DNA from: Candidatus Latescibacterota bacterium
GTDB taxonomy: Bacteria; Latescibacterota; UBA2968; GCA-2709665
Direction: 5' to 3'
DNA: 64,000 bases
Assembly (NCBI GenBank): GCA_965219455.1
Contig: OZ244744.1
Location: 2,048,001 to 2,112,000, forward strand
In this document: positions 32,104-60,168 of the stretch, piece by piece
Position numbering within the stretch: the stretch's first letter is position 1
Layout of the letters: each line of letters opens with the position of its first letter
Program-made: the position numbers and the translations under genes
The notes under the pieces: generated by a model
Database searches by the model: none
Told to the model about the DNA's origin: nothing
What the model saw: only the letters and a program-made list of their open reading frames with translations

Positions 32104-32859
32104 TGTTCTTTCTGTACCTTGTTCAGTAAACTTACTCGTAGCGAATATCGGTCTCGGGAAAGAGAATAATTGGGGAACGGTAGAAAACCTAAAAGCGACT
32201 TAACTAATGGATTTCGATTTGAGAAACGGTCAATCGCGCCTGTGTGGCACAGGCAGGCTAAGGGAAGTCACGTTACCGCCGCAGAAACCCTCGATGCATG
32301 TAGACGATTCCAGTGGCCTGAGGATATAATTATATACTCATCAAACACGCCGATGACAAGGGTGTTTTGGCCGGGTTTCCGGGTATAAATGTGATGTCCA
32401 ACGGATTGAGGAACTTCGGTGGTCTATCAACGCCGGGGCGAAGCGCTACTGCTATCCTTTTTCCCTTGTCAAAAACAGTTGAATATCCCGCCAAATCGGC
32501 AATTTGTGATCTCTACACCAATAGATCAGACCACCCCGAAAAAGGAAGTGGGAACGGCATTTCATTTTTCGCAAGATGGATGGAAAAAAGGTGCAAGAAC
32601 CGTCATCATGCACTGTCAGTCGCCAGACTGGACGCTCATCCGGCAGGAGATTCATATACTGCAATTGTCCGCATCGGTATGGGCATAACAGTGTGGAAAG
32701 GCGACCGGAAAGCAAATGTCGATCGCGTACTTTATGCCCACAATTAAAACTGTTCCTGCGGCTTCCATTTACCGATATTCTTTCACATGTCCTCAGCAGA
32801 GTCAGAGGAGGAATAGTTGATGCTGATGACGGCTCTATCGACAGCGGTAAACCAGGCCG

Positions 32860-33426
32860 ATGCGGGTGATTATTCCGGCGATTTGGATGAAAGAGGGGCG
32901 CAACAGTACCTCGCGCGAAGTGCAGACCGGGGGCGTCTGGCTGGCGATGGACCATAAACCGGGCTCGGCGGCAACGGATGTGCGGGATCATGGTGTGGGC
33001 CGGTCAACGATGCCGACCGATCACCGCATTGAACAGGACATTGATTTTCTTTCACAGATTGTCATAATGGCGAAACCACGATTAAGCAGGTCGTCACGAG
33101 TAACCTTTCATGTGTTGCAGGAATGGGAAGGCTACGTCACTGAGATTAAGGACACGGAATTCGCTGCGCGTCTGACCGATCTGACGTCCGGTGCGAAATA
33201 TGCGGGTGAAGAAGCCTGCATTCCCCTGGAAGAGATATCTGATGACGACGCTGACAAGATGCAAGTGGGGAGCATCTTCCGCTGGGTGATCGGTTACGAG
33301 TGCAAAGGGCGTGCAAAAAAGCGGGTTTCTCAAATCGTGTTGCGCGACCTTCCTATGATCACGAAGTCCGACATGCGAGATGGCCGGGAATGGGGCCATA
33401 GTATCGTAGCGGTTTTCCAGCAATGA
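32860..33426 (+). CDS. hypothetical protein (LQEWEGYV...GSIFRWVIGY domain), possibly frameshifted at its 5' end
   Basis: Globular-looking C-terminal ~110 aa. The strong RBS GAGGAGG (32805-32811) precedes ATG 32820 in a different frame that stops at 32957. Confidence 0.65.
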   Translation: MRVIIPAIWMKEGRNSTSREVQTGGVWLAMDHKPGSAATDVRDHGVGRSTMPTDHRIEQDIDFLSQIVIMAKPRLSRSSRVTFHVLQEWEGYVTEIKDTEFAARLTDLTSGAKYAGEEACIPLEEISDDDADKMQVGSIFRWVIGYECKGRAKKRVSQIVLRDLPMITKSDMRDGREWGHSIVAVFQQ

Positions 33427-33528
33427 CAATGCCGGCAACTCGTTAGACCAGCCAGGCAAATGTGAAATCTGGCGAGTCATTGCACCTGGAGTTTCTACTC
33501 ACATCGGCGAGCCCAGGGAGGTTCTTCC

Positions 33529-34809
33529 GTGAAACTAAAGTCTGTAGAAATCGAGAACTACCGCGCCATTGAGCAACTCAAGCTGCGGCTCGATCCGCAG
33601 CTGACCGTGTTTCACGGCGCCAATGGGGACGGCAAGACCAGTGTATTAAGCGCGATTGCGGTGGGTCTGGGGGCGATTCCCAAGTTATTGTCCGATGTGA
33701 CGGACCTTGACTTCTGTGAGGAGGATCAGCGCGAGGGTGCGGGGGCTCCGCGCGTCTCGACCACCGACATGGATGGAAACTCCTGGGAGCGGCAAGGGGG
33801 GAGGCAGGCGGATGACCGAACGGTGCAGCACAGGATGATTGCCTTGGCCAGTTTTCTGGAAGGGCAATTCAAGGGCACTCGGCCAGATCAGGCCGATCTG
33901 CCTATTGCTGCTTTCTATAGTACGGACCGTGTGGTCTCAGGATTAGCCAAGGCGCCAAACGATCCTAAGGTCCGGTATTCTCGTTTCGACGCACTTGAGG
34001 GGGCCCTCGACGCTCGCACAGACTTTGGAGGTCTCTTTACCTGGTTTTATTTCAAGGAGGACGAGGAACTGAGAATACAAAAGGAACGACGCGATTTCAA
34101 TTATCAGGTAAAGGATCTCTCCGCTGCTCGCGGGGCAATCTCGTCCATGCTTCCCGAAGTGTCCGATCCCCGAACCGAATTGAATCCGCCGCGTTTTGTG
34201 GTGTCCCGGAAATCGGGTCAGGGGCTAGTGGAGAAGCTCTCGCTGGACCAGCTAAGTGGGGGCTATCGCATCGTGCTTGCGCTGGCTGCCGACCTTGCGC
34301 GGAGGATGGCGCAGGGAAATCCGCACCTCAAGAAACCGTTAGAGTCCGAAGCAATTGTACTGATTGACGAGGTAGAACTGCACCTGCATCCGGCCTGGCA
34401 GCAGCGTATCCTCGGCGATCTGCTGAGGACATTCCCAAACGCGCAGTTCATCGTCTCCACGCACAGCCCGCAGGTGCTGACGACGGTCGAGCCGCAACGC
34501 ATTGTGGAACTGTATCGGGATGGCGACCGGATTGTTGCCGGTGCATTGGAGGGGGCGACGTATGGGGCCGAAGCGGGAGACGTTCTTACCGTCGTAATGG
34601 GCGTAAACGAACGTCCGCCCGAGAATAAATTCACAAAAGGCCTGGCTCAATACAGAAGTCTGATCAGGCAGGGACAGTGGGAGTCCGGAGAAGCCCTGGC
34701 TTTGCGAGAAAGTTTGGAGAAAATGTCTCCCTATGATCCGGCCCTCGATCGCGCCGACCTTGAAATCCGACGGCGGAAGATGTTTGAGCAGCGGACCGAG
34801 TCGCAATGA
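33529..34809 (+). CDS. ABC/AAA ATPase, Septu PtuA / retron-effector-like
   Basis: Walker A GANGDGKTS, signature LSGGY, Walker B LIDEVELHLHP.WQ, STHSP; GGAGG RBS. Confidence 0.88.
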   Translation: MKLKSVEIENYRAIEQLKLRLDPQLTVFHGANGDGKTSVLSAIAVGLGAIPKLLSDVTDLDFCEEDQREGAGAPRVSTTDMDGNSWERQGGRQADDRTVQHRMIALASFLEGQFKGTRPDQADLPIAAFYSTDRVVSGLAKAPNDPKVRYSRFDALEGALDARTDFGGLFTWFYFKEDEELRIQKERRDFNYQVKDLSAARGAISSMLPEVSDPRTELNPPRFVVSRKSGQGLVEKLSLDQLSGGYRIVLALAADLARRMAQGNPHLKKPLESEAIVLIDEVELHLHPAWQQRILGDLLRTFPNAQFIVSTHSPQVLTTVEPQRIVELYRDGDRIVAGALEGATYGAEAGDVLTVVMGVNERPPENKFTKGLAQYRSLIRQGQWESGEALALRESLEKMSPYDPALDRADLEIRRRKMFEQRTESQ

Positions 34810-35558
34810 AGGTCATCCGCAAATTGAAAACCCCGACTTCCGGCCTTGCCGAATATCTCAAAGCCGTGGGGGACGAAGCGAATTGGGACGAGTTTCGTTC
34901 TCACAATTCGGGGGCATCTTACCGCGAACTGAGGGAGGCCCTGACTCAAAACCAACGTGGAATTTGCGCGTACTGTGAGATGGTGATCGATGAGTGGCGT
35001 CGCCAGGTGGAGCACGTGATCCCGCAGAGCGACAGCGAAAATGGTAGACTGAAGACGACGGATATAGCCAACATGGTCGCCTGCTGTACGGGCGGCACGA
35101 CCCCGGATGGTGATGATAGTTACCGTAGACCAGTGCGATACAATATGAGTTGCGGTCAAGCGAAAGGAAATCAGATTGACGAAGATTTCATCGACCCTCG
35201 TACGCTACCTGCAATGCCATCGCTTGTAAGAGTGCTTGATGACGGACGGATTGAAGCCGACGAAACTGCCTGCCAAAGTGCCAAATTTCATTTTGACAGT
35301 GTGACCCGCACAATTGATATTCTGAACCTAAACGCGGAACGGCTACGGTTGAACCGCGAGAAGTGGTGGAATGGTCTTGAGGAAGAGACCGCGGAAGTTG
35401 AAGATACGGACAATCCTGATATGATCAAAACCTGGATACGCTCATTGCTGACGCCTGATGAGAACAACCGGCTGATACCCCTGTTCACCACAACCCGATC
35501 TTACTTCGCCCCGCTGGGCGAAGTCATCCTGGCTGAAGAACCCCAAGAATGGATCTGA
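34806..35558 (+). CDS. HNH endonuclease, PtuB / TIGR02646-like
   Basis: Q.GICAYCE, EHVIP, N...CC, SCGQAKGN, TI.ILNLN; ATGA overlap with the ATPase. Confidence 0.85.
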   Translation: MKVIRKLKTPTSGLAEYLKAVGDEANWDEFRSHNSGASYRELREALTQNQRGICAYCEMVIDEWRRQVEHVIPQSDSENGRLKTTDIANMVACCTGGTTPDGDDSYRRPVRYNMSCGQAKGNQIDEDFIDPRTLPAMPSLVRVLDDGRIEADETACQSAKFHFDSVTRTIDILNLNAERLRLNREKWWNGLEEETAEVEDTDNPDMIKTWIRSLLTPDENNRLIPLFTTTRSYFAPLGEVILAEEPQEWI

Positions 35559-41384: not shown

Positions 41385-44099
41385 TCAGTCCTCCTTCACA
41401 AACTCGGCGGCCTTGAGGAGGGTGACGGCGTCGCATTCGGTGGCGGGGTAGTCGCGTACGGTAATGGATTTCTCCGTAGCGGCTTCGATTTCGTACCCGG
41501 TATCGCCACACAGCAGATAGGTCCCGGGAAGGGTATCGGGATCGGGCACGGCGTTCCGGACGTGGTAGGTGCGATCGGTGACGCCGGTGACCTCGAGGGA
41601 GATCTCGGCACTTTCGATGGTCAGCGCGTGTCCGTTGCAACGGATTTCGGTACCGCGCAGCAGATAGGCGCGGAGCAGGATGCCCCCGTCATCGACGGAC
41701 GCAAAGGCGAACCGGCCTGTAATGGACAATGGCCCAATGTCGTGTGCGCCGCCCTCCGGCGCAGAGAGGATGTAGTCCGTACATCCATGACGACGGACCG
41801 CGACCGCCATCGCGCCGGTGTCCGGATCGTCCACGAGCAGGCGGGACGATTGGACGGGTGAGTGATCCACGTACGGTGAAACCACCGCTGCATATTGGCT
41901 GGTCAGGTGCGTATCGTCGCCGCGCTCCGCCAGGATCTGCTGCACCGGAGGGGCATTGAGTTCCTCGCCCAGGTCCGAGCGCCAGCCCGGAGCGTCCGCG
42001 AGAAGCAGACGATGGATGGGGTTGAGCAGCGTGAGGTCCAGTCGCACGTCCTGGTTTTCCCATGTAGCGGTGAATGGGCCTTGCGGCCGGTCGGCGCGGA
42101 TGTTGTCCAGCCACTCGAACGGTTCGTCGACGGGTTTCGGGTCGGCCCCGAGAATGCCGGTAAGGCGGCCGTTGCTGTGGAAGCCGTACTGGTGAAGCGT
42201 GCCGCCGTTCACCTGGAAAAGGTCGACAGCATAGGTCTGATCGCCGGGGACCTGGACCAGGACACAGGTGCGCCGGTACAGACGGCATTGCTCGTAAGGC
42301 GCCGCGGATGCCTGTACGACCTCCACGCCCGCACCCGCGCCGAAGAGTTCCAGCGCGGCCGGTTCGTTGTTGCCGCTCTGGTTGTGACCGTCCACCGTGA
42401 CGATGTTATGGGCAAGCGTACTGCCGGTCCACGCGTTTCTGGGGTCGTCCCAGATATATCCCCTGTCCGCCGCCATCTCCCGTCCATGTGCGATATAGAT
42501 GATACCCAGGGTGTCGTTGTGGCGATGGCCGCCGTGCGCGTAGCCGTTCAGGTAGAACGCAGTATGGCCCTTCAGGTTTCCGCCGCGAAGAACGGCAACG
42601 TGCCATCCCGGAAACCATTCCGTACGTTGGGGCAGGTCGGTATCCTCGTCCACTTTCAAATCGGGGTCCCGGTGCCAGAGGGCGTATTCTTCCCCTTTCA
42701 GTGACAGTGCCGCCCCCTGAGATTTCTCCAGCAGGCCGGCGTAGCGGCTGCCGTAGTGGGCCGCCAGAATCTCGGCGTAGATGGGGTCGATGGTCCGACC
42801 CTCCCCGGAGTCTCCGATGACGGGCTCCTGAAGGTTCGGATCCAGCATGCGGACCATGCTCTCCAGGGCCAGACGATAGCGGTCGAAGTGTTGAAAGGGA
42901 TCCAGGTTCTTTATCGCTGCACCGGTTTCCGGTTCGTACCCGTCGGGATCGGCGTATCCGTCGAGAAGTTCCGGTATTTCGCGCAACAGGTTGAGATGCA
43001 TGGAGGAATAGCTCGGGGATTCCGTGCAGAAGCCATCAAAATGGAAGGCGTCTTCCATGAGCGCTTCAAACGCCTGAATCGCCCGGCGTACGCTCTCCGG
43101 TTTCTTGAAGAGAATGCCCACCGCGGCACTGAGTGCCCGCCCCGGACCGCATTTGTTGTTGATATCGTTCCAGTTTTCGGTGTCCGTACAACCGGCCAGG
43201 ATGAGGTCGTCGACAATGCGCCGCTCCATTTGGGAAGTGATAACGGGAGCGCCATCCGGATGCCGCGCCGTTCGGACCAGGTCGTAGGCCAGCGCGACCC
43301 GGAGAATGTATCCGCCATCGGATCCGCTGCACCCGAAGCGTCCGGCGCCCCAGAAGCCGTTGTTGAGTACCGCGTGGTTATCCACCCGGTGACGGCCTTC
43401 AAAGGCGGAGATGATGGTTTCGACGGGAAACCGGCCGGCGGGTGGGTATTTGCCCATGGATGCCGCGGCTTCGGCGGGTGGACAATCCGCAACGGTACCG
43501 TCGTAGGAATGGAACAGCCAATTGGGATACCGCCGCGCCATACAGTCCATAATCCACGCGCTCCACTGCGCGTACCGCACGTCGTCGGTGAGTGCGTACA
43601 ACTTGGCGAGAGGAAGCATCTGTTCGAAGCACCAGCGGCTTTTCTTTGAGCGGATGACGCCGGTCCAGCTTGTGTGGACGGGCCATCGGACCCATTTGAA
43701 CGCGTGTTCGCCCGATCTGTCTTCAGGGTGTGCGCGTTCCGCATCGGTGAGATAGAAGGTGAACGTCTGGTTCATTCCGGGTGCGGTGACGCTGCCGGTC
43801 TCGGGATAATCGGCGTTGGGGTACTCGGTTTTGCAGTATCTGCAGATAAGCCGGTCCGGATCGGTCGGGTCCCAGTCGTAGATACCGCATTCGCCCATGG
43901 AGGAGAGACGGTCCACACAGGCTGGGCAGTTCTGGCCGTACTCGGGCCATGGGGTGAGTTCCGGCATCATCGCCTCGACAAAATCCATGTCCCGGCCAGT
44001 GAGGTAGTCGACCTCTTTTTTCCAGTCTTCGACGATGGCCTGCGCCCAGGAATGGCGGCGCAGGTTCTCCCGCGCGATTTCTACGTTGAGAAGGGGCAT
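41385..44099 (-). CDS. heparinase II/III-like protein
   Basis: LYALTDD.RYA, DGFCTESPSY, GHRHNDTL, DRGY, AHNIVTVDG; start MPLL after AAGGAG. Confidence 0.78.
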   Translation of the reverse strand: MPLLNVEIARENLRRHSWAQAIVEDWKKEVDYLTGRDMDFVEAMMPELTPWPEYGQNCPACVDRLSSMGECGIYDWDPTDPDRLICRYCKTEYPNADYPETGSVTAPGMNQTFTFYLTDAERAHPEDRSGEHAFKWVRWPVHTSWTGVIRSKKSRWCFEQMLPLAKLYALTDDVRYAQWSAWIMDCMARRYPNWLFHSYDGTVADCPPAEAAASMGKYPPAGRFPVETIISAFEGRHRVDNHAVLNNGFWGAGRFGCSGSDGGYILRVALAYDLVRTARHPDGAPVITSQMERRIVDDLILAGCTDTENWNDINNKCGPGRALSAAVGILFKKPESVRRAIQAFEALMEDAFHFDGFCTESPSYSSMHLNLLREIPELLDGYADPDGYEPETGAAIKNLDPFQHFDRYRLALESMVRMLDPNLQEPVIGDSGEGRTIDPIYAEILAAHYGSRYAGLLEKSQGAALSLKGEEYALWHRDPDLKVDEDTDLPQRTEWFPGWHVAVLRGGNLKGHTAFYLNGYAHGGHRHNDTLGIIYIAHGREMAADRGYIWDDPRNAWTGSTLAHNIVTVDGHNQSGNNEPAALELFGAGAGVEVVQASAAPYEQCRLYRRTCVLVQVPGDQTYAVDLFQVNGGTLHQYGFHSNGRLTGILGADPKPVDEPFEWLDNIRADRPQGPFTATWENQDVRLDLTLLNPIHRLLLADAPGWRSDLGEELNAPPVQQILAERGDDTHLTSQYAAVVSPYVDHSPVQSSRLLVDDPDTGAMAVAVRRHGCTDYILSAPEGGAHDIGPLSITGRFAFASVDDGGILLRAYLLRGTEIRCNGHALTIESAEISLEVTGVTDRTYHVRNAVPDPDTLPGTYLLCGDTGYEIEAATEKSITVRDYPATECDAVTLLKAAEFVKED

Positions 44100-44265
44100 G
44101 ACAACTCCTTTATTACACGTCAGGACCGAAACACACGGCACGGTGCTGATGGAACCTGGCCTGAAAAATTCATGCAATTGTCACGGTTAGCAGCGTAATT
44201 CGCGGATCAATCAACTCCACCGCCACAGAATGGCTTTTCGAGCCGTTGAGAAAGTGTTTGTGAAG

Positions 44266-44289
44266 GTGGGGCAGACATTCCTGTCTGCC
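44266..44289. repeat. REP-like palindrome
   Basis: GTGG-GGCAGACA-ttcc-TGTCTGCC between convergently spaced genes. Confidence 0.6.
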
Positions 44290-44435
44290 GTGCTCATTGT
44301 GCTTCTGCCGGAATGCGAACGGGAGACAGGCTTGCGCCGCCTGCACTTAGCTTGTCGAAGAGATGCCATCCGGGCGACTCGTCGGCCGAATTTTGGTGAT
44401 CTATTTTCGGGACAGAACGCACGCGCACGGAACGT

Positions 44436-45650
44436 CTACTTCTCCATGAACGGGCCGTGCTGTTCAAGGCGTTGCAGCGTCTCTTGAAACGCCTCCGTGC
44501 CGTCGTCCTCCCACACCTCGAGGCGGATACCCCGGGTATTGCCTTCAGGGAAGCCGGTAAGGCTGGCTACGTTGGGGAAACCTTTGGTGTAGAGTCTGTT
44601 CCCGCCCGGCAGGTGCAGGATGCCGATTGTGGGAGGGATAACCGTGGGTTTGTTGGCCGCGCATTCGGCCAGGGCGTCTTCGTCGACCTCCACGCCGAGA
44701 CCGGGGCCCTCCGGTACCGGAGACGAGCCGGCCGCCACCTCGATTCGCTGTTTGACAACGTCTTCGTCGTACTGATCGTCCAGGTTTGTGGAATGGGCCA
44801 CGTTCGGAATCACGGCGCCCATGTGCAGGGCCATCGCTTTGGTAAGGGTGCCGCCCGTGAGCTGGATGACCGATGAGACATTGGCCAGTGCCGCGGCAAA
44901 GCCGCGCACGATGGTGGGGCCGATTCCGCCTTCGCCGATCATATAGGCGTCGGCGCAACCCCGGATGATTTCCTGGCCGCCACCGAGCTGAGGGACGTGC
45001 ATCAACAGAGGAAAGCTGGTCTTCTGCCGCAGCAGGCGCCACCCTTCCACGTCGGACAGTACAAGGGGATCCTCTATCATTCCGACCACGGGGGAGCCTT
45101 CCAACTCCTTGAGAATTCGCAGGACGGCGGCGAGCGGCCGGTTGTGATTGAAGTCGTAGTGCATCCTGAATCCGTGCGGCGCCACCTCCTCCACGGCTCG
45201 GGTCTGTTCAAAGACGTCGTAATAGGCGCAGGTATGGATCTTGAAGATCATATATCCCTGGTCAACCGCACGCACCACCTCTTTGGCCAGATCTTCCGGC
45301 GACGCCGGGCGGGTCCATGCCGCCACGGGCACCCGGTCACGTATCTTCTGGCCCATGAGTTTGTACGCGGGAATCTCCAGATGCTTGCCCATGGCGTCGT
45401 ACAGCGCGCCCATCAGGCCGGAATTGAGATTGGCGTTAATAAAATCGAAGGGGTCACGGTCAACGAGGTGCGCCACGGTGGATCTCTCCGGCGCCTCGCA
45501 GCGCGCGTCGCCGTACCCGACGATGCCGTTGTCCGTTGTAATTTTGAATATGGTGCGATGGTTCAGGTTGATGAACCGCGCTTTCTGATCGGCGTTCCGG
45601 TCGGCGATTCTCGGATAGATGGGGATCATTTCGATGTCGGTGATTTTCAT
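44436..45650 (-). CDS. mandelate racemase/enolase-superfamily protein
   Basis: MKITDI, ALYD..GK..P.Y.L.G..RD, KIH, DFN, EDP, GPGLGVEVD. Confidence 0.88.
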   Translation of the reverse strand: MKITDIEMIPIYPRIADRNADQKARFINLNHRTIFKITTDNGIVGYGDARCEAPERSTVAHLVDRDPFDFINANLNSGLMGALYDAMGKHLEIPAYKLMGQKIRDRVPVAAWTRPASPEDLAKEVVRAVDQGYMIFKIHTCAYYDVFEQTRAVEEVAPHGFRMHYDFNHNRPLAAVLRILKELEGSPVVGMIEDPLVLSDVEGWRLLRQKTSFPLLMHVPQLGGGQEIIRGCADAYMIGEGGIGPTIVRGFAAALANVSSVIQLTGGTLTKAMALHMGAVIPNVAHSTNLDDQYDEDVVKQRIEVAAGSSPVPEGPGLGVEVDEDALAECAANKPTVIPPTIGILHLPGGNRLYTKGFPNVASLTGFPEGNTRGIRLEVWEDDGTEAFQETLQRLEQHGPFMEK

Positions 45651-45739
45651 GATGAATTCCTTTAATAACGGGATAACGGGAAGATTACGGCCTGAAATCG
45701 CGGCAATGTCCGTATATCAGGGTTGTCGAACTCCGCTCG

Positions 45740-45808
45740 TCAGACCTTCACGGGCCACGTAATATCTACGCCGGGCAGTATCCTGCGCAAGAGGGATCTT
45801 AACTGGTC
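45740..45808 (-). pseudogene. stranded duplicate 3' end of the DHDPS-family gene
   Basis: Encodes LLRRILPGVDITWPVKV* versus LLRRILPGVDITRSVEV* at 46629; 34/37 nt identical core. Confidence 0.85.
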
Positions 45809-45830
45809 CGATCGCGAGTCTCTGGTGAGG

Positions 45831-45872
45831 ACCTCTCCCCTCGGCCCCCTCTCCTGCGAGGAGAGGGGGAGT
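45831..45872. repeat. CCCTCTCC-type palindromic repeat
   Basis: CCTCTCCCCTCGGCCCCCTCTCC...GGAGAGGGGG; related copies at ~57994 and ~58130. Confidence 0.65.
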
Positions 45873-45917
45873 TGAAGGAAGTGTTGCGAAAACATTGGAG
45901 AAAGGAATCCACATATT

Positions 45918-46583
45918 ATGGCTGTAAAGGTAGGACAGATGGCGCCCAACTTCGGGGTCTCGAGCTGGGTGCAGGGCGCCCCGACCAACTTCGACCGGGA
46001 GAGGGATCACATCGTGGTGCTGGAAGTCTTCCAGGTCAATTGTCCCGGATGCTTCATGTACGCCATTCCCGATGCGATACGCGTGTACAACAGGCACACG
46101 GACGACGGGGTGCGCGTCCTTGGACTGGCCACCGCCTTTGAGGACTTTGACAAAAACACGCTTGACAACCTCAGACTCCTGGCTGAAACCGGTCAGGTGA
46201 TAGGGGAGACCGGGAGGGCACTTGCCATGAGCGGGCAGTTGCAGGAGGGAGACAGGCTGCCCTACAAGATCCCGTTTCCGCTCGGTATGGACAACCTTAC
46301 GAGGACGTCCGGCGGACCCGGCCACGAAGCGATTATGGACGTGATATACGGCCAGATACCCGACTTCGACTCGCAGCCTGAGAATTACAGGGTGCAGATC
46401 ACACAAAGGGTGAAGGACTATCTGAGGGCAAAGGAATATTCGGCCGAGACGTTTGAGAAGTTTAACCTGCGCGGAACACCGTCCACCATACTTGTCGACC
46501 GCAAGGGAGTCCTCAGGGACGTCTCTTTTGGCCGGACGGACCACCTTGAGGAGATGATCCAGGGGATCCTCGGCGAGGACTGA
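45918..46583 (+). CDS. thioredoxin-fold redoxin (AhpC/TSA / TlpA-like)
   Basis: FQVNCPGC (CxxC), ATAFEDF, GTPS.ILVD; AAGGA RBS. Confidence 0.88.
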   Translation: MAVKVGQMAPNFGVSSWVQGAPTNFDRERDHIVVLEVFQVNCPGCFMYAIPDAIRVYNRHTDDGVRVLGLATAFEDFDKNTLDNLRLLAETGQVIGETGRALAMSGQLQEGDRLPYKIPFPLGMDNLTRTSGGPGHEAIMDVIYGQIPDFDSQPENYRVQITQRVKDYLRAKEYSAETFEKFNLRGTPSTILVDRKGVLRDVSFGRTDHLEEMIQGILGED

Positions 46584-46628
46584 GTCACCGAGAGCGGATC
46601 TCAATCGCGGCTGCCAGGATCCCGCCCT

Positions 46629-47549
46629 TCATACTTCGACGGACCTTGTAATATCCACGCCGGGCAGTATTCGGCGCAAGAGGGTTTTTACGTGGCCGGC
46701 GGTGGATGAATCGATGTTGGCGCCGGGGTGCCGCACATAGCTGCTCCTGATCAGCCCGCGCAGTTTGAATATCTCCTTTCGGATCGCCACGCCCGGCTGC
46801 TGTTCGAAGACGATGAGCGGCAGATAGCGGCGATAAATGTCGTGCACGGCGTCGAAGTCGCTGATCCGTGCGGCCCGCACCATGGCGATCAGCACTTCGG
46901 GAAAAGCGAAGCCGGTCATGAAACCGTGGGCGCCGCGGGCCAGATCGAAACCGGCGTAGAGGGCGCCCAGGCCGGTGAGAACGGTTACCGAACGGTCCCC
47001 GATGCCATTCAAAATGGCCGTAATTCTGGGCGGGGCGGGTGTGGCCTCTTCCTTGATACACGCGACAAGCGGAATCTCGCGGATCAGACGGTGGATGAGG
47101 GAGACGGACATGTGGACCTGGGAAGAGGCGGGGTGGTCCTGTACGACCATGGGAATGGAGATGCCTTCCGCAACCTGGCTGAAGAACTCGAAGATGCGGT
47201 CTTCGTTGGGAACCGGTTCCCGCATGGGGGTGACCATCACGCCTGCCGCGCCCATGGATTCGGCCATCCGGCTGAGTTCCAGAGTCGCCCGCGTTCCGCC
47301 GTGGCTTGTTCCAACGATCACGGGGATGCGGCCGTCAAGGGCGTCCACGGCGGTCCCGATCAGACTTTTCCGCTCGTCGTCCAGCATCCGATTGGATTCA
47401 CCCAGTACGCCGATCACCGTGATGCCGTCGACCCCGACGTCGGCCATGAAGCGTACCGTCCGGTCGAAGGATTCCAGGTCGAGATCGCCCCTGTCATCAA
47501 ATGGGGTGACGAGGATGGGAAAGACGCCTTTAAATGTCACGGTCGCCAT
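46629..47549 (-). CDS. DHDPS/NAL-family aldolase or dehydratase
   Basis: GVFPILVTPF, GVLGE, VVQDHP, Schiff-base lysine in IKEE. Confidence 0.88.
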   Translation of the reverse strand: MATVTFKGVFPILVTPFDDRGDLDLESFDRTVRFMADVGVDGITVIGVLGESNRMLDDERKSLIGTAVDALDGRIPVIVGTSHGGTRATLELSRMAESMGAAGVMVTPMREPVPNEDRIFEFFSQVAEGISIPMVVQDHPASSQVHMSVSLIHRLIREIPLVACIKEEATPAPPRITAILNGIGDRSVTVLTGLGALYAGFDLARGAHGFMTGFAFPEVLIAMVRAARISDFDAVHDIYRRYLPLIVFEQQPGVAIRKEIFKLRGLIRSSYVRHPGANIDSSTAGHVKTLLRRILPGVDITRSVEV

Positions 47550-47745
47550 AATGGGACATTCGCCCTTTTGTCCGTCATCGTGGTATCCATTCGCAAGAAA
47601 GGTGCGGGCCGCGGAGAAAACAGGGATTCCCACCGGGCTCCGGAACGCCGGTGCCGATCGTCCGGCGGGGCTGACCGGTCTGATTCCCGAATGGTATGTT
47701 CGTGATATACGACACCCGGGGCGAGGCGTTTTTTTTGACCCGTAT

Positions 47746-50700
47746 TCAAGCCTTCAATACGTGCAGGCCGCCGTCCTCCGAACAAACGGCGATTTCAGGA
47801 ATGCCGTCTCCATCGACGTCCGCGGGGACAATATCCAGGATGGGGCCGCCGGTTTGAAAGCGGCCGATCTGGCGACCATCCGCATTGGCGAGGAGGCGCA
47901 CGGTACCATCCTCGACGCCCGCCGCGACTTCGAGTCTTCCGTCGCCGTTGAAGTCGGCCGCGGCGATGCAGCGAACGACTTCGCCGAGGTCGGCGCGCCA
48001 GTGCAATGTCCTGCCGTCGCCCTTGACGACGTAGACGTTGAAACTCATGGACGATGCGACGATCTCATCCAGGCCGTCGCCATCCATGTCGGCCATCAGA
48101 ACCTGGGTGACTTCGTCGCCCGTGTTGAATTGCGAGATAAGAGTCCCGTCGGCGTTGAGAAGGTGGACGTGGGTGTCCGCGCCGGCGAAGACGACTTCCT
48201 TCAGACCGTCGCCGTCGACGTCGCCCGCCGCGGCGCTATTGGCGCGGGGGCCCGTGGCCGGATGATAGGACCAGCGGATTTCGCCGTTCCCGTCGATGCA
48301 GTGCCAGCGGTGGTAGTCCGTTCCGGCGATAACCTCGTCCCGGCCGTCGCCATCCAGGTCGGCGGCGCAACCGGTGGACGAGGGGCGCACGGTCATCTGG
48401 CGCCAGAGTTCTTCTCCCTCGTGTGTGAAGGCGTGATAGCGCCACGATTCCACGGCGGCGATGATCTCGAGGTTGCCGTCGCCGTTGATGTCGCCGGTGA
48501 AAACCGACCGGACGACGGGATCCTGGAAGTAGAAGGGGATCTTGACGTCCCACTTCAACTCCCCCCTCGCGTCGAGGACGTACACACGGGTGTCTTCCGA
48601 CCCGGCGATGATTTCCGGCAGGCCGTCGTTTTCCAGGTCTGCGGTCCACACGGAGCGCACGACGCCACCGGTGGGATAGCGCCAGAGAGAATGACCCTCT
48701 TTATATGCGTGGACGGACCGTGTGCGGCCGCCGGCGATGACCTCATCCTTACCGTCGCCGTCCAGATCCGCGGCCTGTACGGACAGCAAAGCGCTGTCTT
48801 CCCTGTGAGACCAGAGCGCGGGTAGATCCGGAATGCGGCGCCTCCTGCGCGAGGTCGGAAAGCGGGGCGTGATATGTGGTCTGGTCTTTTTGGCTGCGGC
48901 GCGGCGGAGTCCCGTGAGGGCCGGCGGGATCAGCGCGACGTCGTGCCTGCCGCCGGTCGCACGGAACGTGACGGCGCCGTTAGAGACGTCGGCGGCGATG
49001 GGCCTGCCGTCCAATTCGACCTCCGTCCTGCCTCCGGAGGACAGCGTGATCGTCGTCGGACCGGAGGTGACGAGAGTGCCCCGCGCCGCCGAGAGATCGT
49101 ATTCGAAGGACACGGGGCGATCGCTCTTGAATGTAACGCCTTCCCAGGAAACTTCCGTGCCGTCGACAACGGCAATGGTACGGGGAGAAATCTGAAACTG
49201 GGCGGCCGCGACACTGGGGCCCGACGGCAGCGCCGTCGCCCTGTGGGTCTCGCCGACGCCGGCAAAGGCGGTTTCCGGTCCGCCATCGATGCGTACGGCG
49301 GTCTCGGCAACCTGCGTCATTCTGAACTTCAGGGGACTGCAATAGAGAAGGTTGAAAAAACGATAGGCCTCCCCTTTTTTGAGATGCACGTCAACGATCT
49401 GCTGAAGTACGCGTACGATGGGTTCGGCGTGAGTATAGCGATCCCAGTTCTTTCCGGTTTCCGGGTCGTCCTCGAGTTTGATCCGGGGACCCGTCAGGCC
49501 ATGAATGAAGAATTGCTCGCCATTTTGTTCCACGGCCAGGCCGCCGTGGCGGGGTTGCACGTTGCCCAGCGTGTGCCAGACGGCGCGCAAGCTGTAGTCC
49601 GCTTCGTCCTGAGCTTCCATTTCATCGATAACGAGAAAATAGGCCCCACGACTCCACAGGATGTTCCGGCGCCAGTCCACGCCGCTGTACGATCGAAGCG
49701 TTGTCTGCGAGAATCCCGAATTCACGTTGGCGGAAAATTGTTCGAGTTCCGCAAAGGGCGGTATTTCGGCGGATTGCCCGTTTCTGAAAATGAGGACGCC
49801 GTTGTGAAATTTGGGCAGCGATTTGATGTAGTCGCAGTCAGCCAGCCAGATACGGTTGTTCTGGGTCAGGCGGCAGATCGAGTTGCCGTCGTAATGTTTG
49901 TGGCCGCCGTTCGAAAGGCCGTCGAGGAAGAGATATTGGTTCTGAGGGTCGAAACCATCCCGGAAGACGACCTTGTCGAAGGTCTTGTTCAAAGGCAGAT
50001 GGTCGCCGCCGCTGTTGGAAGCGTAATAGAGCGAATCCACCGGAAAGACCTGGGCGCCCTCCATGTCCGCAGGTTCGACCGCATCGACGTCCCGGCTGTG
50101 TTCATATGGATGCGCGTTGGCGGCCATGGCTTTTTTCTTGTCGAGCATCCACTGGTAGCGGCCGTCGCCCGTCACGCAGACCATGGCTCGCAGGTAGGGT
50201 ACTTCAGTCCACGTTCCGAACGGGGAGGCCGTGTCTCCGTTGGGCACGGCGCAGCCCAGGTTATCCGTGGTAAGGATGGCGTAATCGCCGGCGCGCTGCG
50301 CATTGCCGGTATCGAAGAACGTCATATCACCCGAACTGAGGGTGTAGCGCATTGCGTGGAAGTGCGTGCGCCACTGGTAGTGGCCGCAGTCCTCCAGGGG
50401 TTTGAACGCGTTGACCTGCACCCTGAAACATTTCTCAGCCAGTGCCAGCCATTTGTAAGCCTGCGCGGCTTTGTAGTACTTTTTGAAATAGACGCCGGCA
50501 TAGTGCAGGCCCAGGGCGGCGTACGTGGCGTGATTGTGACGGACGTGCTCATTGTCGACGTTGCCGACGCGCGATACGCAGTCTGTGATGAACTCGAACA
50601 GGATGCGGGTAATCCGCAGGCGGTCTTCAGCGGAGATGACGGGGCTCTCTTCCACGAGATCCCATCCCGGCATGACGTACTGCAGCGCGAAGTCCGCGTC

Positions 50701-51450
50701 GAAACCCCACACGCTGCCATAATTGTCGGGATCGGACTTGACATGGTCGTACATCCGGTAGACCAGTCGTTTGTAAATCTCCGCGTACACGTTGTTTCCG
50801 GTGAGCCCGTAGTGCAGGCCCCGCTGCCCGATGCGGCCCCACAACCCGGTATGGCAGCCTCGTTTGAGGTCTTCTTCGGCTTCCGCCATCTCGGCCTCGA
50901 GGTCCGGTTCTTCGGGGATGCCTGCGTCGTGACGGGCATCCGGACCCCACTTTACATCGAACATGGGACCGAGAGTGAGCGTCGATTCCCCCTTGAGGCG
51001 CTCAAGTAAGAGACCTGTGGCGGTTTCGACTCCTGATATATCGCTGCCGAAAAGGCCAACGGCGTTTTTGCCGTTGCCCCAGGGATCGTGGATGGTGTGC
51101 AGAAGATGTCCGCCGTTTCCGGGGTAGTGGTCGTCGGCGGGGGTGTAGCTGTAGCCGTAAAGCCGGAATATCGCCCGGCTGGTGTTCAGGTTGCCCAGAA
51201 GGATGAGGTGCCTCCGGGGTGTCCTGGCGACCGCGGCGTGGTCGAGGATGGGAAGGTCGGCGCCGGAAAGGTCGTGGATTTTTTTCTGGACAGACTCGGC
51301 AAGGGCGGCGTACCGGTCATCCGACGGACGCACAATGGCGGCCATGGGGCGCCCGTCTTCCACCAGGTTGGTGTCCGGGTACCGCGGTTTGGGCTTCGTC
51401 AGATTCTTGAGGGACATCCTTCGCGACGGCATGGCGGGCTCCGGGGGCAA
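47746..51450 (-). CDS. large heparinase-like protein with C-terminal FG-GAP/VCBS beta-propeller
   Basis: HNH, GGHKHYDGN, HNGV core; eight D-x-(D/N/E)-(G/N)-D-G..E repeats in the C-terminal ~350 aa. Confidence 0.72.
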   Translation of the reverse strand: MPPEPAMPSRRMSLKNLTKPKPRYPDTNLVEDGRPMAAIVRPSDDRYAALAESVQKKIHDLSGADLPILDHAAVARTPRRHLILLGNLNTSRAIFRLYGYSYTPADDHYPGNGGHLLHTIHDPWGNGKNAVGLFGSDISGVETATGLLLERLKGESTLTLGPMFDVKWGPDARHDAGIPEEPDLEAEMAEAEEDLKRGCHTGLWGRIGQRGLHYGLTGNNVYAEIYKRLVYRMYDHVKSDPDNYGSVWGFDADFALQYVMPGWDLVEESPVISAEDRLRITRILFEFITDCVSRVGNVDNEHVRHNHATYAALGLHYAGVYFKKYYKAAQAYKWLALAEKCFRVQVNAFKPLEDCGHYQWRTHFHAMRYTLSSGDMTFFDTGNAQRAGDYAILTTDNLGCAVPNGDTASPFGTWTEVPYLRAMVCVTGDGRYQWMLDKKKAMAANAHPYEHSRDVDAVEPADMEGAQVFPVDSLYYASNSGGDHLPLNKTFDKVVFRDGFDPQNQYLFLDGLSNGGHKHYDGNSICRLTQNNRIWLADCDYIKSLPKFHNGVLIFRNGQSAEIPPFAELEQFSANVNSGFSQTTLRSYSGVDWRRNILWSRGAYFLVIDEMEAQDEADYSLRAVWHTLGNVQPRHGGLAVEQNGEQFFIHGLTGPRIKLEDDPETGKNWDRYTHAEPIVRVLQQIVDVHLKKGEAYRFFNLLYCSPLKFRMTQVAETAVRIDGGPETAFAGVGETHRATALPSGPSVAAAQFQISPRTIAVVDGTEVSWEGVTFKSDRPVSFEYDLSAARGTLVTSGPTTITLSSGGRTEVELDGRPIAADVSNGAVTFRATGGRHDVALIPPALTGLRRAAAKKTRPHITPRFPTSRRRRRIPDLPALWSHREDSALLSVQAADLDGDGKDEVIAGGRTRSVHAYKEGHSLWRYPTGGVVRSVWTADLENDGLPEIIAGSEDTRVYVLDARGELKWDVKIPFYFQDPVVRSVFTGDINGDGNLEIIAAVESWRYHAFTHEGEELWRQMTVRPSSTGCAADLDGDGRDEVIAGTDYHRWHCIDGNGEIRWSYHPATGPRANSAAAGDVDGDGLKEVVFAGADTHVHLLNADGTLISQFNTGDEVTQVLMADMDGDGLDEIVASSMSFNVYVVKGDGRTLHWRADLGEVVRCIAAADFNGDGRLEVAAGVEDGTVRLLANADGRQIGRFQTGGPILDIVPADVDGDGIPEIAVCSEDGGLHVLKA

Positions 51451-51474
51451 AAGTCGAACCGGGCAAGTTTCTCT

Positions 51475-52257
51475 CTACTGTTGCCCGATGAGTTGCTTCA
51501 GGAATGCGATTTCGTGTTCCGCGGTCTCGTAAGGCGGATGATGGCTGCCGTGTTCGATCGAAATATATCCGTCAAAGCCCTTGGATTGCAGGACACGGAT
51601 GAACGCCGGAAAATCCACGTCGCCGGAGTCGAGAAACGTGAGCTGCGGCCAGTTTCCCACCCAGTTGTGGGCGTGCAGATGGACAACGTGTTCCCCGAGT
51701 TGCTCGGCAGTATGGAAGACGGATTCGCCGATGAGAGGAGTCTGGAGATTTACAGTGAGGTTCTGCATACCCACGTCTTCAAGCAGTCTCAGAGTGCTCG
51801 GACTGGTGTCCGTGAGGTTGGGCCCATGGTGGATAACCTGGTGGGTTTCCAATGGGAAGACGATGTTGTGGACGGCGCCCATTTCGCAGATTTTCCGCAA
51901 GCCCCTGACACAGGCGTCCCATTGCCGGGCGGTCGCGTCCGCGCTCCCCACGTTGCCGGTGTAGGTTCGTACAAAGGGACAGTCGAGTTCGACCGCGTAA
52001 CCGATGAAGGTCTCGGCATCCCGGATGCTCTGATCCCAGGTTGCCTGGCTGGTGGTGAAGTCGAAGTAGGGGCAGATCTGCACGATCCGGAGGTCGTGTT
52101 CGGCCGTAACTGAACGGACCCATCCCAGATCCGCGTGGCAGAGGTACTGTTGCCAGAGTTCGATGCCGTCATAACCCAGTTCGGCGAGGTAGGGTATGGC
52201 CTTTTCCTGATCGGCCTGTGTATTGCCGAAAGCGTTTGTGCAGAATGAGGACTTCAT
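51475..52257 (-). CDS. sugar phosphate isomerase/epimerase (xylose-isomerase-like TIM barrel)
   Basis: GYDGIEL, LETH, HLHAH, G.VDF, GFDGYISIEH. Confidence 0.85.
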   Translation of the reverse strand: MKSSFCTNAFGNTQADQEKAIPYLAELGYDGIELWQQYLCHADLGWVRSVTAEHDLRIVQICPYFDFTTSQATWDQSIRDAETFIGYAVELDCPFVRTYTGNVGSADATARQWDACVRGLRKICEMGAVHNIVFPLETHQVIHHGPNLTDTSPSTLRLLEDVGMQNLTVNLQTPLIGESVFHTAEQLGEHVVHLHAHNWVGNWPQLTFLDSGDVDFPAFIRVLQSKGFDGYISIEHGSHHPPYETAEHEIAFLKQLIGQQ

Positions 52258-52404
52258 GGCAATGAAAAGACCGAGAGTAAAACGCACCTGTCGTCGTATC
52301 GAGAAATATTCTGCCATCGGTTCAACAAATGCGTAAAATAGAAGCACTACAGGCAATGTCAAACGCAATTTGGATCGCGTTCATTCGAATTAAGGGAGGA
52401 ATCT

Positions 52405-58276: not shown

Positions 58277-60168
58277 CTAGTCCTTAAACAAGCGTGACCA
58301 GTGAAATTTTTCTGGTCCAAGAGACCGGAAAGGCCTACCGTTGTTGGAGATAGATGGATTGTGCTAGAAATCATCACGCCAACGCAGGAGACCTTTCCGG
58401 TGAAAAGAATATCGGTTGATGACAGCCGCAGGAACCGTGCTCGTCGCAAACGCAAAGTGGCCGCCCGCCACGGTCGAGCGGGGCATTGGCAGGCCCAGCG
58501 CCGGCCCATGTTCAGTCCTGGCAAAGTGCACTACGAGGTAGGCGCCTACACCGACGCGATGAGTTACGGAGGCATCGGCGCCGTGCATCGCCTGGTCACC
58601 AAGCTGGGTCTGCCCAAGCGCATCGACGCGTCACTGTCCTTGTTGAAGGTGCATCTGCCCTATCATGAGTCGGACCACGTACTAAACATCACATACAACG
58701 TGTTATGCGGCGGCACGCGCTTGGAGGATATCGAGCGTTTGCGAAGTGACGGGGCCTACATGAATGCCCTGGGCGCCAAGTTGATTCCCGATCCGACCAC
58801 GGCGGGTGACTTTTGCCGACGCTTCTCGGAACGGGACATCGTCGAACTGATGGCGTGCATCAACGCGGTGCGATCCTCCTTGTGGGCATCGCGTGGCCGC
58901 AAATTGCTTGGTGACATCACCTATATCGATGTGGACGGCACAAACGTGCCCACGTATGGCAAGCGCAAGAGGGGTATGGACATCTCTTACCAGGGCATCT
59001 GGGGCTACCATCCGCTGGTGATCTCACTTTCCAACACGAAGGAAGTGCTCTTCCTGGTCAACCGACCGGGGAATGTGCCCAGCCACACCGGTGCGGCACA
59101 GTGGATCGACGCGGCCATCGACCTGGTGCAGCCCCACGCCAAGCGCATCTGTGTGCGTGGCGACACCGACTTTTTCTTGACTCGACATCTTGATCGCTGG
59201 GCCAAAAGCGTCGACTTCATCTTCGGGATGGACGCCAACGCGGCGATGCGTTCCCGTGCCGAGGCCCTCGACGAGGCACAATGGCAGCCCCTGCAACGCA
59301 AACCCCGTTATCACACCGTGACCGACCAGAAGCGGAAGCGCAATCAGCCCCACGAGAAACAGCGCATCGTCCACAAGCGGGCCTACGCCAACCTGGTGCT
59401 GAACCACGAACACGTGGCCGAGTTCAACTACCAACCCACGCGCTGTAAACGTGGGTATCGCGTCGTGGTCCTGCGCAAGAACATCAGCAAAATGAAGGGC
59501 GACCTTGTCCTGTTCGACGAATGCCGTTATTTCTTCTATATCACGACACGCACGGACGTGACCCCCCAAGAGATCGTCGCCTGCGCCAACCAACGCTGCG
59601 ATCAGGAGAACGTCATCGAGCAACTCAAAAACGGCGTCAACGCCTTGCGCGTGCCCCTGTATGACCTGGTCAGCAACTGGGCCTATATGGTCATCGCCGC
59701 CCTGGCCTGGAACCTCAAATCCTGGTTTGCCATGATGATGCACAGACACCGTGATCGACAGCAGTACGTCTGCATGGAATTCCGGCGCTTCATCCACAGC
59801 ATTATCTTGATTCCCTGCCACGTCATCCAACGCGCGCGCACCACCACGTTACGGCTCATCGGCTATCAACCCACCCTCGATCGCCTCTTCAGCACCTGGC
59901 GTATCATTGAACGCACCGGATTTGGATAACACCAATGCAGCACCACCGATGACACACAAACGCGGCGCCATCCCCACACCCCTCAACGGACCGGTGTGTC
60001 CACCACGCGTCTCAACGCCACTTCGGATACTCAATTTACCATAGCGACCACGACAAACACGGCCCTAAAAACCATCCAAAACGCCAATTCCATATAAATC
60101 GACACCAACGCCTCAACACAAACACAAATCACTGTGGCGCACACGATACTCGCTTATTTTAGGACTAG
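58277..60168 (+). mobile_element. IS1380-family insertion sequence
   Basis: Left end CTAGTCCTTAAACAAGCGTG versus reverse complement of the right end CTAGTCCTAAAATAAGCGAG (17/20); CTAG at both boundaries. Confidence 0.88.
58400..59929 (+). CDS. IS1380-family DDE transposase
   Basis: IDVDGT, GYHPL, NRPGN, RGD, N.RCDQEN.IEQLKNG; GTG after AGGAG. Confidence 0.92.
   Translation: MKRISVDDSRRNRARRKRKVAARHGRAGHWQAQRRPMFSPGKVHYEVGAYTDAMSYGGIGAVHRLVTKLGLPKRIDASLSLLKVHLPYHESDHVLNITYNVLCGGTRLEDIERLRSDGAYMNALGAKLIPDPTTAGDFCRRFSERDIVELMACINAVRSSLWASRGRKLLGDITYIDVDGTNVPTYGKRKRGMDISYQGIWGYHPLVISLSNTKEVLFLVNRPGNVPSHTGAAQWIDAAIDLVQPHAKRICVRGDTDFFLTRHLDRWAKSVDFIFGMDANAAMRSRAEALDEAQWQPLQRKPRYHTVTDQKRKRNQPHEKQRIVHKRAYANLVLNHEHVAEFNYQPTRCKRGYRVVVLRKNISKMKGDLVLFDECRYFFYITTRTDVTPQEIVACANQRCDQENVIEQLKNGVNALRVPLYDLVSNWAYMVIAALAWNLKSWFAMMMHRHRDRQQYVCMEFRRFIHSIILIPCHVIQRARTTTLRLIGYQPTLDRLFSTWRIIERTGFG

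Follow-up and report, generated by a model that had tools for sequence, protein, structure and literature searches.

Well-documented gene transfers from archaea to bacteria are less often described than transfers in the reverse direction. The closest described relatives of the gene considered here are Nitrosopumilaceae proteins of 220-223 amino acids (aa) and 66-75% identity, for which related clusters carry the names 'redoxin domain-containing protein' and 'TlpA family protein disulfide reductase'. We analysed a stretch of 64,000 nucleotides (nt), hereafter the window (contig OZ244744.1, positions 2,048,001 to 2,112,000, assembly GCA_965219455.1), from a Candidatus Latescibacterota bacterium whose metagenome-derived genome consists of a single contig of 5.84 Mb, with an estimated contamination of 8.5%. 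The window holds a redoxin gene that an initial annotation, made from the sequence alone, had singled out as a recent inter-domain transfer from a thaumarchaeon. The bacterial protein has the NCPGC motif, the GTPS loop and the insertion of about 80 residues in common with its Nitrosopumilaceae orthologues, but it differs from them in its 16 Arg and 7 Lys residues (archaeal medians 5 and 19), in a GC content at third codon positions (GC3) of 0.76 against about 0.2, in a bacterial leader instead of a TATA-type upstream region, and in its neighbouring genes. Our results make it very probable that the gene was imported once from Nitrosopumilaceae and then spread among Latescibacterota. The import from a thaumarchaeon is supported by archaeal nearest relatives, by nesting in maximum-likelihood (ML) trees, and by the contrast between a conserved, syntenic core gene in the archaea and scattered occurrence in the bacteria.

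In agreement with the initial annotation, Nitrosopumilaceae proteins are the closest ones known beyond the host phylum. Among the best 80 loci (contigs, one genome per species), six belonged to Latescibacterota or 'uncultured bacterium' (81-90% aa identity) and the other 74, at 66-75%, to Nitrosopumilus, Nitrosarchaeum or other Nitrososphaerota. When 1.84 billion cluster representatives were searched exhaustively without a profile, no full-length protein exceeded 54% identity beyond the Latescibacterota and Nitrososphaerota relatives; the clusters at 54% (P0001, P0002) were named Acidobacteriota and Gammaproteobacteria/Arenicellales, and further homologue clusters were named Nitrososphaeraceae, Methylomarinum and Nitrospinae. 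The wider redoxin family is scattered across several bacterial phyla and may have a transfer history of its own.

The distribution of the gene differs sharply between the two domains, being near-universal and syntenic in Nitrosopumilaceae and patchy in Latescibacterota. It was found in 235 of 251 Nitrosopumilaceae genomes, including all five unpublished ones (230 of 246 without those). The four open reading frames (ORFs) that flank the gene on a complete Nitrosopumilus chromosome (L046) were found again in 47-50 of 51 archaeal loci; their products include ribosomal protein L15e, a HEAT-repeat protein and a cupredoxin. In Latescibacterota, where presence was scored at E<=1e-10 in 168 genomes of 49 genera, strong or partial matches occurred in 18 genomes and five genera: the window genome, 7 of 14 other congeners, and 10 of 76 genomes of a second family (f4). 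At the same threshold there was no match in seven genomes of other host-family genera, which gave weak matches only (E 1e-5), or in 31 genomes of family f2. Three of the f4 copies are decayed, one by an internal deletion (G102, L098), one with only both ends left (G164, L100) and one by frameshift (G165, L099/L101), and the context of each matches that of an intact copy in a congener.

In ML trees the host-phylum copies fell within the Nitrosopumilus-like archaea. The careful ML tree (84 rows, 221 columns; LG+C20+F+G4 with posterior mean site frequencies, PMSF) comprised the 15 distinct bacterial copies, 40 of the 73 distinct archaeal rows of the best-80 set, 20 deeper family members and 9 outgroup representatives, leaving out the longest-branched representatives of a first quick tree. 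All 15 bacterial copies formed one clade (support 100/98), whose sister was a Nitrosopumilaceae contig of 50% GC (L065; 99/96) with the same archaeal neighbours as L046, L15e included. Together they lay inside successive archaeal-only nodes with support of 93/86, 86/89, 98/87 and 95/84, and the nine sampled homologues whose archaeal loci have 54-70% GC branched away from the bacterial clade. After removal of 17 columns variable between Lys and Arg, the bacterial clade was still nested among Nitrosopumilus-like rows, with support from the Shimodaira-Hasegawa-like approximate likelihood ratio test (SH-aLRT) of 76-89 for most enclosing nodes and 0-37 for several nodes near the clade. An origin from within Nitrosopumilaceae is well supported by several independent lines, and an L065-like donor is tentative. 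Placed among the deep Nitrosopumilaceae rows, and not outside them, was a cluster of 486 members with the name Nitrososphaeraceae (tree rows P0003 and P0005).

The site of insertion can be read from related genomes. In the sister genera (G015, G017) the DHDPS-family gene ends 29 nt before the start of the MR_MLE gene, and no redoxin gene is present. The host genus shows three states: FG-GAP–DHDPS–redoxin–MR_MLE in the window genome (G000), G013 and G011; FG-GAP–redoxin–MR_MLE in G003, G009, G002, G007 and also G005, which keeps a 38-aa DHDPS remnant; and FG-GAP–MR_MLE in seven genomes. One of these 'empty' genomes, G012, retains the last 51 nt of the redoxin ORF along with pieces of the DHDPS end, so that the absence of the gene there is a secondary loss. 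A direct repeat of 74 nt, with copies that are 78% identical, flanks the redoxin gene on its two sides; it is formed by the true DHDPS 3' end (copy A) and an orphan copy of it (copy B; Table 1), which lies 89 nt from the MR_MLE start and is present in every redoxin-bearing congener and in G012. The same bracketing repeat measures 85 nt in G013, also at 78% identity; outgroup DHDPS 3' ends are too diverged to show which 74-nt copy is native. The short leader has the form AAAGGAATCCACATAT[CT]-ATG and looks bacterial in type, whereas archaeal copies have, some 25-30 nt ahead of the start, a box of the TATTTAA type. Around the redoxin gene, searches for a sigma-70-like promoter and an intrinsic terminator gave none of either.

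Table 1. Features at and around the redoxin gene, in positions of the window (AF2, AlphaFold2; REP, repetitive extragenic palindromic; MITE, miniature inverted-repeat transposable element)
Feature	Positions	Strand	Remarks
Heparinase-like gene	41385-44177	-	
MR_MLE (enolase-superfamily) gene	44436-45650	-	Pfam assignment; left neighbour of the redoxin gene throughout the host genus
Copy B, orphan copy of the DHDPS 3' end	45733-45806	-	Between redoxin and MR_MLE genes; translates to …RRILPGVDITWPVKV
Palindromic dispersed repeat (REP- or MITE-like)	45828-45894	.	67 nt, strain-specific here
Leader	45896-45917	+	22 nt (…AAAGGAATCCACATATT), accompanies the ORF
Redoxin gene	45918-46583	+	221-aa ORF; thioredoxin fold with family-specific insertion of ~60-80 residues
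C42-P-G-C45 codons, putative redox-active CxxC	46041-46052	+	N-terminus of helix 43-63 (AF2 model)
Copy A, true DHDPS 3' end	46622-46695	-	74 nt, coding
DHDPS-family gene	46629-47633	-	Pfam PF00701, E 1.1e-35; convergent with the redoxin gene
FG-GAP/carrageenase-like gene	47746-51450	-	

Comparison of the bacterial copies indicated movement between genera as well as vertical descent. Since the bacterial clade is monophyletic, a single entry into the phylum followed by movement between genera appears most likely. DNA homology between the host family and the four other genera starts at 45896-45901, and that between the host genus and the f4 genera extends only from 45896 to about 46590, covering the ORF, its leader and a few downstream bases (80-91% nt identity). 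The f4 genera share with each other only the ORF and about 20 nt, and flanks are common within one genus. Redoxin proteins from the two bacterial families are 76-90% identical to each other, where Rpe of the same genomes reaches 49-57% and NadE 64-69%, and synonymous divergence (dS) of the window copy from an f4 copy (L011; 0.25) is similar to that from a congener (L003; 0.21). Within the host genus, redoxin identity tracks that of other proteins in the comparison with G013 (redoxin 91%, Rpe 92%, NadE 94%, MR_MLE 96% aa identity), consistent with vertical descent. Seven other species of the genus carry the gene at the same locus (81-91% aa identity). This shared locus, the deletion remnants and a dS against archaeal copies that was saturated or above 3 in the four comparisons run contradict the 'recent' acquisition of the initial annotation; the transfer predates the host genus.

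The flanks of the other bacterial copies offered little more. The downstream 130 nt of 11 contexts held no visible common sequence, and direct repeats of at least 20 nt were absent around the gene in L011, L092 and L094; a weak GC-rich flanking repeat of 26-30 nt at L097 is probably due to chance. The unit of about 690 nt formed by the ORF and its leader might be a minimal self-contained mobile cassette, found at five unrelated sites in five genera without a recognisable recombinase and having once rebuilt the 3' end of an interrupted gene through the 74-nt duplication, an idea that we regard as doubtful. If true, it would represent an undescribed route of ORF-sized exchange in sponge microbiomes, seeded from an archaeal co-symbiont, for example by vesicle-borne or gene transfer agent (GTA)-borne fragments integrating through a single crossover at short homology.

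We propose that an ancestor of some Latescibacterota acquired the gene once from Nitrosopumilaceae, probably from a Nitrosopumilus-like lineage in the same habitat. After entry it would have gained the short bacterial leader and then spread, as little beyond the ORF, to five Latescibacterota genera and a minimum of five genomic contexts. Within the host genus its point of entry would have been the DHDPS–MR_MLE junction of a polysaccharide-degradation operon, where it runs antisense and is bracketed by the duplicated 74-nt DHDPS 3' end, with vertical inheritance and loss in several species thereafter. Under bacterial GC pressure, AAR Lys codons of an AT-rich, Lys-rich ancestor would have turned into AGG, now drifting to CGG, and ATA would be a slowly decaying remnant of archaeal Ile usage.

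The codon usage that first drew attention to the gene proved to be a real but narrow anomaly, limited to AGG and ATA. Its Arg codons are AGG 9, AGA 1, CGC 4 and CGG 2 (AGR 10/16) and its Ile codons ATA 5, ATC 5 and ATT 2 (ATA 5/12), exactly as in the initial hand count, against genome-wide shares of 19.2% AGR and 11.3% ATA (binomial P 1.8e-4 and 7.3e-3, respectively). Genome statistics came from a codon-score ORF caller (4195 ORFs, of which 3768 had at least 8 Arg and 6 Ile codons). By these, 15 of the 3768 genes had an equal or higher AGR share, 35 an equal or higher ATA share and two were as extreme in both, and the AGG share of the redoxin gene was the highest of all. The neighbours are CGN/ATC-dominated, as had been noted: MR_MLE has AGR 4/24 and ATA 3/28, DHDPS 4/27 and 2/28, and the heparinase-like gene 5/61 and 2/40. 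The label 'archaeal-style codon usage' therefore stands for the extreme AGG and ATA shares and fails for the rest, because the overall synonymous-codon likelihood is unremarkable (2700 of 3768 genes as low or lower) and the GC3 is close to that of the neighbours (0.74-0.77); in these respects the gene is ameliorated. A search for a second archaeal import with the same signature (minimum shares of 0.35 for AGG and 0.25 for ATA, and a GC3 of 0.6 or more) retained five of 3931 ORFs. The best candidate besides the redoxin gene, a DegT-type aminotransferase, was rejected: its identity to proteins from four Nitrosopumilaceae genomes is only 29-35%, which is not higher than that to a Latescibacterota genome.

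Codon-by-codon alignment against 81 AT-rich archaeal copies suggested how this signature arose. The 10 AGR codons align with Lys (AAA/AAG) in seven cases, AGA in two and Ser/Asn in one, and the six CGN codons with Gln (CAA/CAG) in three, Asn in one and a conserved Arg in two. Bacterial copies are polymorphic at such sites (position 59: AGG 6, AAA 3, AAG 3; position 113: AGG 8, CGG 5, AAG 2; position 29: CGG 10, AGG 5), so that an AAA→AAG→AGG→CGG series appears to be still under way within the bacteria. The numbers of Lys and Arg residues pass from 19/5 (median of AT-rich archaea) through 10/13 (L065) to 7/16 (window protein). For Ile, ATA is the commonest bacterial codon at four of the five ATA sites of the window copy, and L065 has ATA at three of the five; elsewhere, ATA in L065 matches ATC in the bacteria. 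ATA may decay more slowly than ATT because ATA→ATC is a transversion and ATT→ATC a transition. Codon-based detection of horizontal transfer can thus be misled by a 'foreign codon' signal, since the AGG excess would mainly be a trail of Lys-to-Arg amelioration and not a kept donor preference.

Contigs assembled from public sequencing runs (Logan contigs) provided evidence on the junctions. Run X1 yielded contigs over 45300-45838 and 46504-47100 with zero differences. In RNA library X17, one contig of 2567 nt reaches across all three genes (MR_MLE, redoxin and DHDPS) of a related strain with the same 122-nt variant as G013, and a 329-nt contig from a run labelled as a sponge metatranscriptome (X16) is identical over 46562-46889. 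Uncovered parts of the window in X16 and X17 and the small word shares of runs X18-X21 were given no weight. Contig breaks in public runs cluster at the 67-nt dispersed repeat, which has very high word depth in public metagenome runs and is replaced by 122 different letters in G013 and G011. This repeat has 50 further matches in the window genome (e.g., C1:2524653-2524719 and 1063769-1063835), of which 12 have lengths of 40-67 nt and the remaining 38 share mostly its first 24-28 nt; its REP-like hairpin was not significantly more stable than shuffles (z -1.57).

Several points weigh against the account of a single import from AT-rich Nitrosopumilaceae. The best tree with all 62 archaeal rows in one clade survives the approximately unbiased (AU) test (delta lnL 13.3, p-AU 0.29), so strict nesting and the direction of transfer lack statistical security from 221 columns. 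Support for the L065 sister node falls from 99/96 to an SH-aLRT of 37 without the 17 K/R-variable columns, and the relation may therefore be partly compositional. The closest archaeal protein is 74-75% identical, which means that no close donor has been sampled, and neither a mobile-element gene nor an insertion mechanism was identified for the redoxin gene. The codon statistics rest on our own ORF calls, the contigs from RNA libraries may derive from DNA and are no proof of transcription, and the protein scores below the cut-offs of the Pfam Redoxin (20.3 against 26.6), Pfam AhpC-TSA (24.2 against 26) and NCBIfam ResA (20.7 against 170) models. GC-rich archaeal homologues are also independently rich in AGG and ATA (L118, AGG 9/16 and ATA 6/12; L122, 9/18 and 9/13), so a GC-rich donor could yield the codon signature too.

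This last point favours a GC-rich, sponge-associated, Cenarchaeum-like donor, in essence the initial proposal, by which the inter-domain transfer would be the same and AGG and ATA would be donor usage carried over unchanged. The homologues from loci of 54-70% GC combine a GC3 of 0.7-0.9 with AGG/ATA-rich usage, the ML sister L065 (50% GC) has ATA for 13 of 17 Ile and AGR for 8 of 13 Arg codons, and the elevated GC content of sponge-associated Thaumarchaeota, as reported in PMC7848895, counts in the same direction. We nevertheless consider such a donor unlikely. The nine lineages with a locus GC of at least 54% are only 61-68% identical to the window protein and stand elsewhere in the tree, not grouped with the bacterial clade; at the seven Lys-aligned AGR sites, L065 has AAG, AAA or AAC at five; the AAG/AGG/CGG polymorphism among bacterial copies implies that much of the change followed the split from L065, inside the bacteria; and the L065 sister node is itself fragile. 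With seven of the ten AGR codons at archaeal Lys positions, drift from AAR through AGG to CGG explains most of the AGG, and a very GC-rich donor is unneeded; a moderately GC-rich donor is possible and not required.

A reversed or indirect path, from a Latescibacterota-like bacterium to the ancestor of Nitrosopumilaceae or from a third lineage to both, would agree with the unrejected tree of monophyletic archaea and with a wider family that is mostly bacterial (the Acidobacteriota, Gammaproteobacteria/Arenicellales, Methylomarinum and Nitrospinae clusters, at 40-54% identity). It is, however, hard to reconcile with a bacterial clade that is shallow (76-91% aa identity) across families whose housekeeping proteins are 49-69% identical, with the patchiness of the bacterial gene (18/168), its five unrelated contexts and its decayed copies, or with an archaeal set that reaches deep (its members being 57-75% identical to the query), is syntenic and almost universal, and encloses the bacteria in ML and bootstrap trees; we judge it very unlikely. 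The metagenomic source of the genome, its estimated contamination and the breaks of short-read contigs at 45.83-45.90 kb might suggest a chimeric assembly or a mis-binned archaeal fragment. Yet both the GC3 and the leader of the gene are of bacterial type, and its DNA is only 70% identical to the nearest archaeal copy. The gene order is repeated in the independently assembled congeners G013 and G011, with the left neighbour repeated in five further congeners; two DNA runs and an RNA library supply contigs over or across the junctions, and the breaks coincide with the dispersed repeat. Since three independently assembled congeners and the bridging contigs share the same junctions, a chimera is excluded, and the chance of any such artefact is negligible. 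Hardly more credible is a native bacterial gene whose codon bias arose by chance or by selection, for instance on expression level: overall synonymous-codon likelihood and GC3 are indeed ordinary for the genome, but at the E-value threshold used the gene was not found in 150 of the 168 genomes of the phylum, the site is empty in sister genera and the nearest relatives are archaeal, and such an origin is refuted by distribution and tree together. An import from Nitrosopumilaceae followed by spread among Latescibacterota accounts best for the evidence as a whole, with the direction of transfer most probably from archaea to bacteria.

The encoded protein appears, from its sequence and its AF2 model (mean pLDDT 94.2, pTM 0.84), to be a CPGC thioredoxin-fold protein of TlpA/ResA-like type and not a typical peroxiredoxin. 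The peptides quoted in the initial annotation (WVQGAPTNFD, KEYSAETFE and ILGED) all occur in the translation; its classification as 'AhpC/TSA-type' is not supported, given Pfam results below gathering scores and a thioredoxin-type CPGC active site. The N-terminal 70 residues match peroxiredoxins (AhpC/TSA, PF00578) weakly (E 3.5e-5). Peroxiredoxins carry their peroxidatic Cys within P-x-x-x-T-x-x-C, whereas the window protein reads L35-E-V-F-Q39-V-N-C42, with L35 at the place of Pro and Q39 at that of Thr. N41 and C42 are invariant in a 19-row alignment, NCPGC is kept in all 18 copies checked (15 bacterial, 3 archaeal), and G186-T187-P188, invariant in the 19 rows, stands where alignment with PDB 3eyt would place a putative cis-Pro loop. 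The median ratio of non-synonymous to synonymous divergence (dN/dS) over 105 pairs of the 15 Latescibacterota copies was 0.17, and the gene is under purifying selection in this phylum.

The top profile matches of the protein (E 8e-32 and 2e-31) and its top fold matches (target-normalised TM 0.84-0.87) were PDB 3eyt (SPOA0173) and 3lor (the 'thiol-disulfide isomerase' of Corynebacterium glutamicum), structural-genomics thioredoxin-like proteins without known function. All three have Q-x-x-C-P-G-C in common; 3eyt and 3lor are 158-160 aa long, and the window protein has about 60-80 extra residues (approximately 92-172, with helices 96-104, 136-146 and 155-171) between core strands. Next among the structure matches come oxidoreductases of the TlpA/ResA/DsbE/DipZ-C group (Foldseek E 1e-7 to 6e-10; TM 0.71-0.79 for ResA and DsbE-like chains), with which the window protein has in common the thioredoxin fold and a CxxC that opens a helix, at an identity of only 13-18%; the putative cis-Pro loop would correspond to theirs. 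TlpA, ResA and DsbE are extracytoplasmic, with a membrane anchor or export signal. Unlike them, the window protein has no hydrophobic N-terminus: in the sequence and the AF2 model, with no dedicated signal-peptide predictor run, its N-terminus (MAVKVGQMAPNFGV…) enters the first strand directly. These features favour, with moderate confidence, a cytoplasmic dithiol disulfide reductase of unspecified partner, plausibly in oxidative-stress defence, in which C42 and C45 would carry out disulfide reduction.

The redoxin gene is the only plus-strand gene amid minus-strand genes spanning 41385 to 52368, in agreement with the antisense placement first reported. Several observations concern its surroundings. 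The DHDPS-family gene, intact at the locus in 3 of 15 host-genus genomes, present as a remnant in G005 and G012 and not found there in the other 10, is undergoing loss in the genus; its aa identity to G013, 87%, is moreover lower than that of the adjacent MR_MLE (96%) and FG-GAP (95%) genes. Congeners G001, G006, G008, G010, G012 and G014 have a second MR_MLE paralogue at another locus, 63-64% identical to that of the window. Elsewhere in the window, a DDE transposase (58301-59929, +; PF13701, PF01609) lies 12 kb from the redoxin gene, with no connection seen. A region of lower GC (31153-35558; 0.50-0.56) with a D12-class DNA methyltransferase fragment, an AAA_15/AAA_21 ATPase and family-less ORFs may be a defence island, and a class A beta-lactamase family protein (21635-22525, -; PF13354, E 1.4e-63) is encoded amid housekeeping-type genes.

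The identical 329-nt piece in the sponge-labelled RNA run suggests sponges as the likely setting of the host and, possibly, of the exchange. According to PMC7848895, 7 of 11 sponge-associated Thaumarchaeota have a GC content of 47-67%, against 32.5-34.2% in free-living ones, and sponge-associated Latescibacterota are documented in PMC12993501. No account of this transfer was found in the abstracts and matched passages of the literature searched, those of these two papers included. The purifying selection on the bacterial copies suggests that a thiol-redox protein core to ammonia-oxidising archaea was useful enough to bacterial co-inhabitants to be maintained.

The locus is a new example of a known phenomenon, extended by an amelioration trail and by ORF-sized secondary spread, and the donor family, empty site, scar, secondary spread and decay are all visible in one data set. 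The inter-domain transfers documented for Thaumarchaeota, for example in PMC4122925 and PMC3564930, are likewise exchanges of single genes between archaea and bacteria found by phylogeny. Going by title and abstract, these papers deal with imports into archaea, whereas here the flow was most likely from archaea into a bacterial phylum, followed by secondary spread within it.

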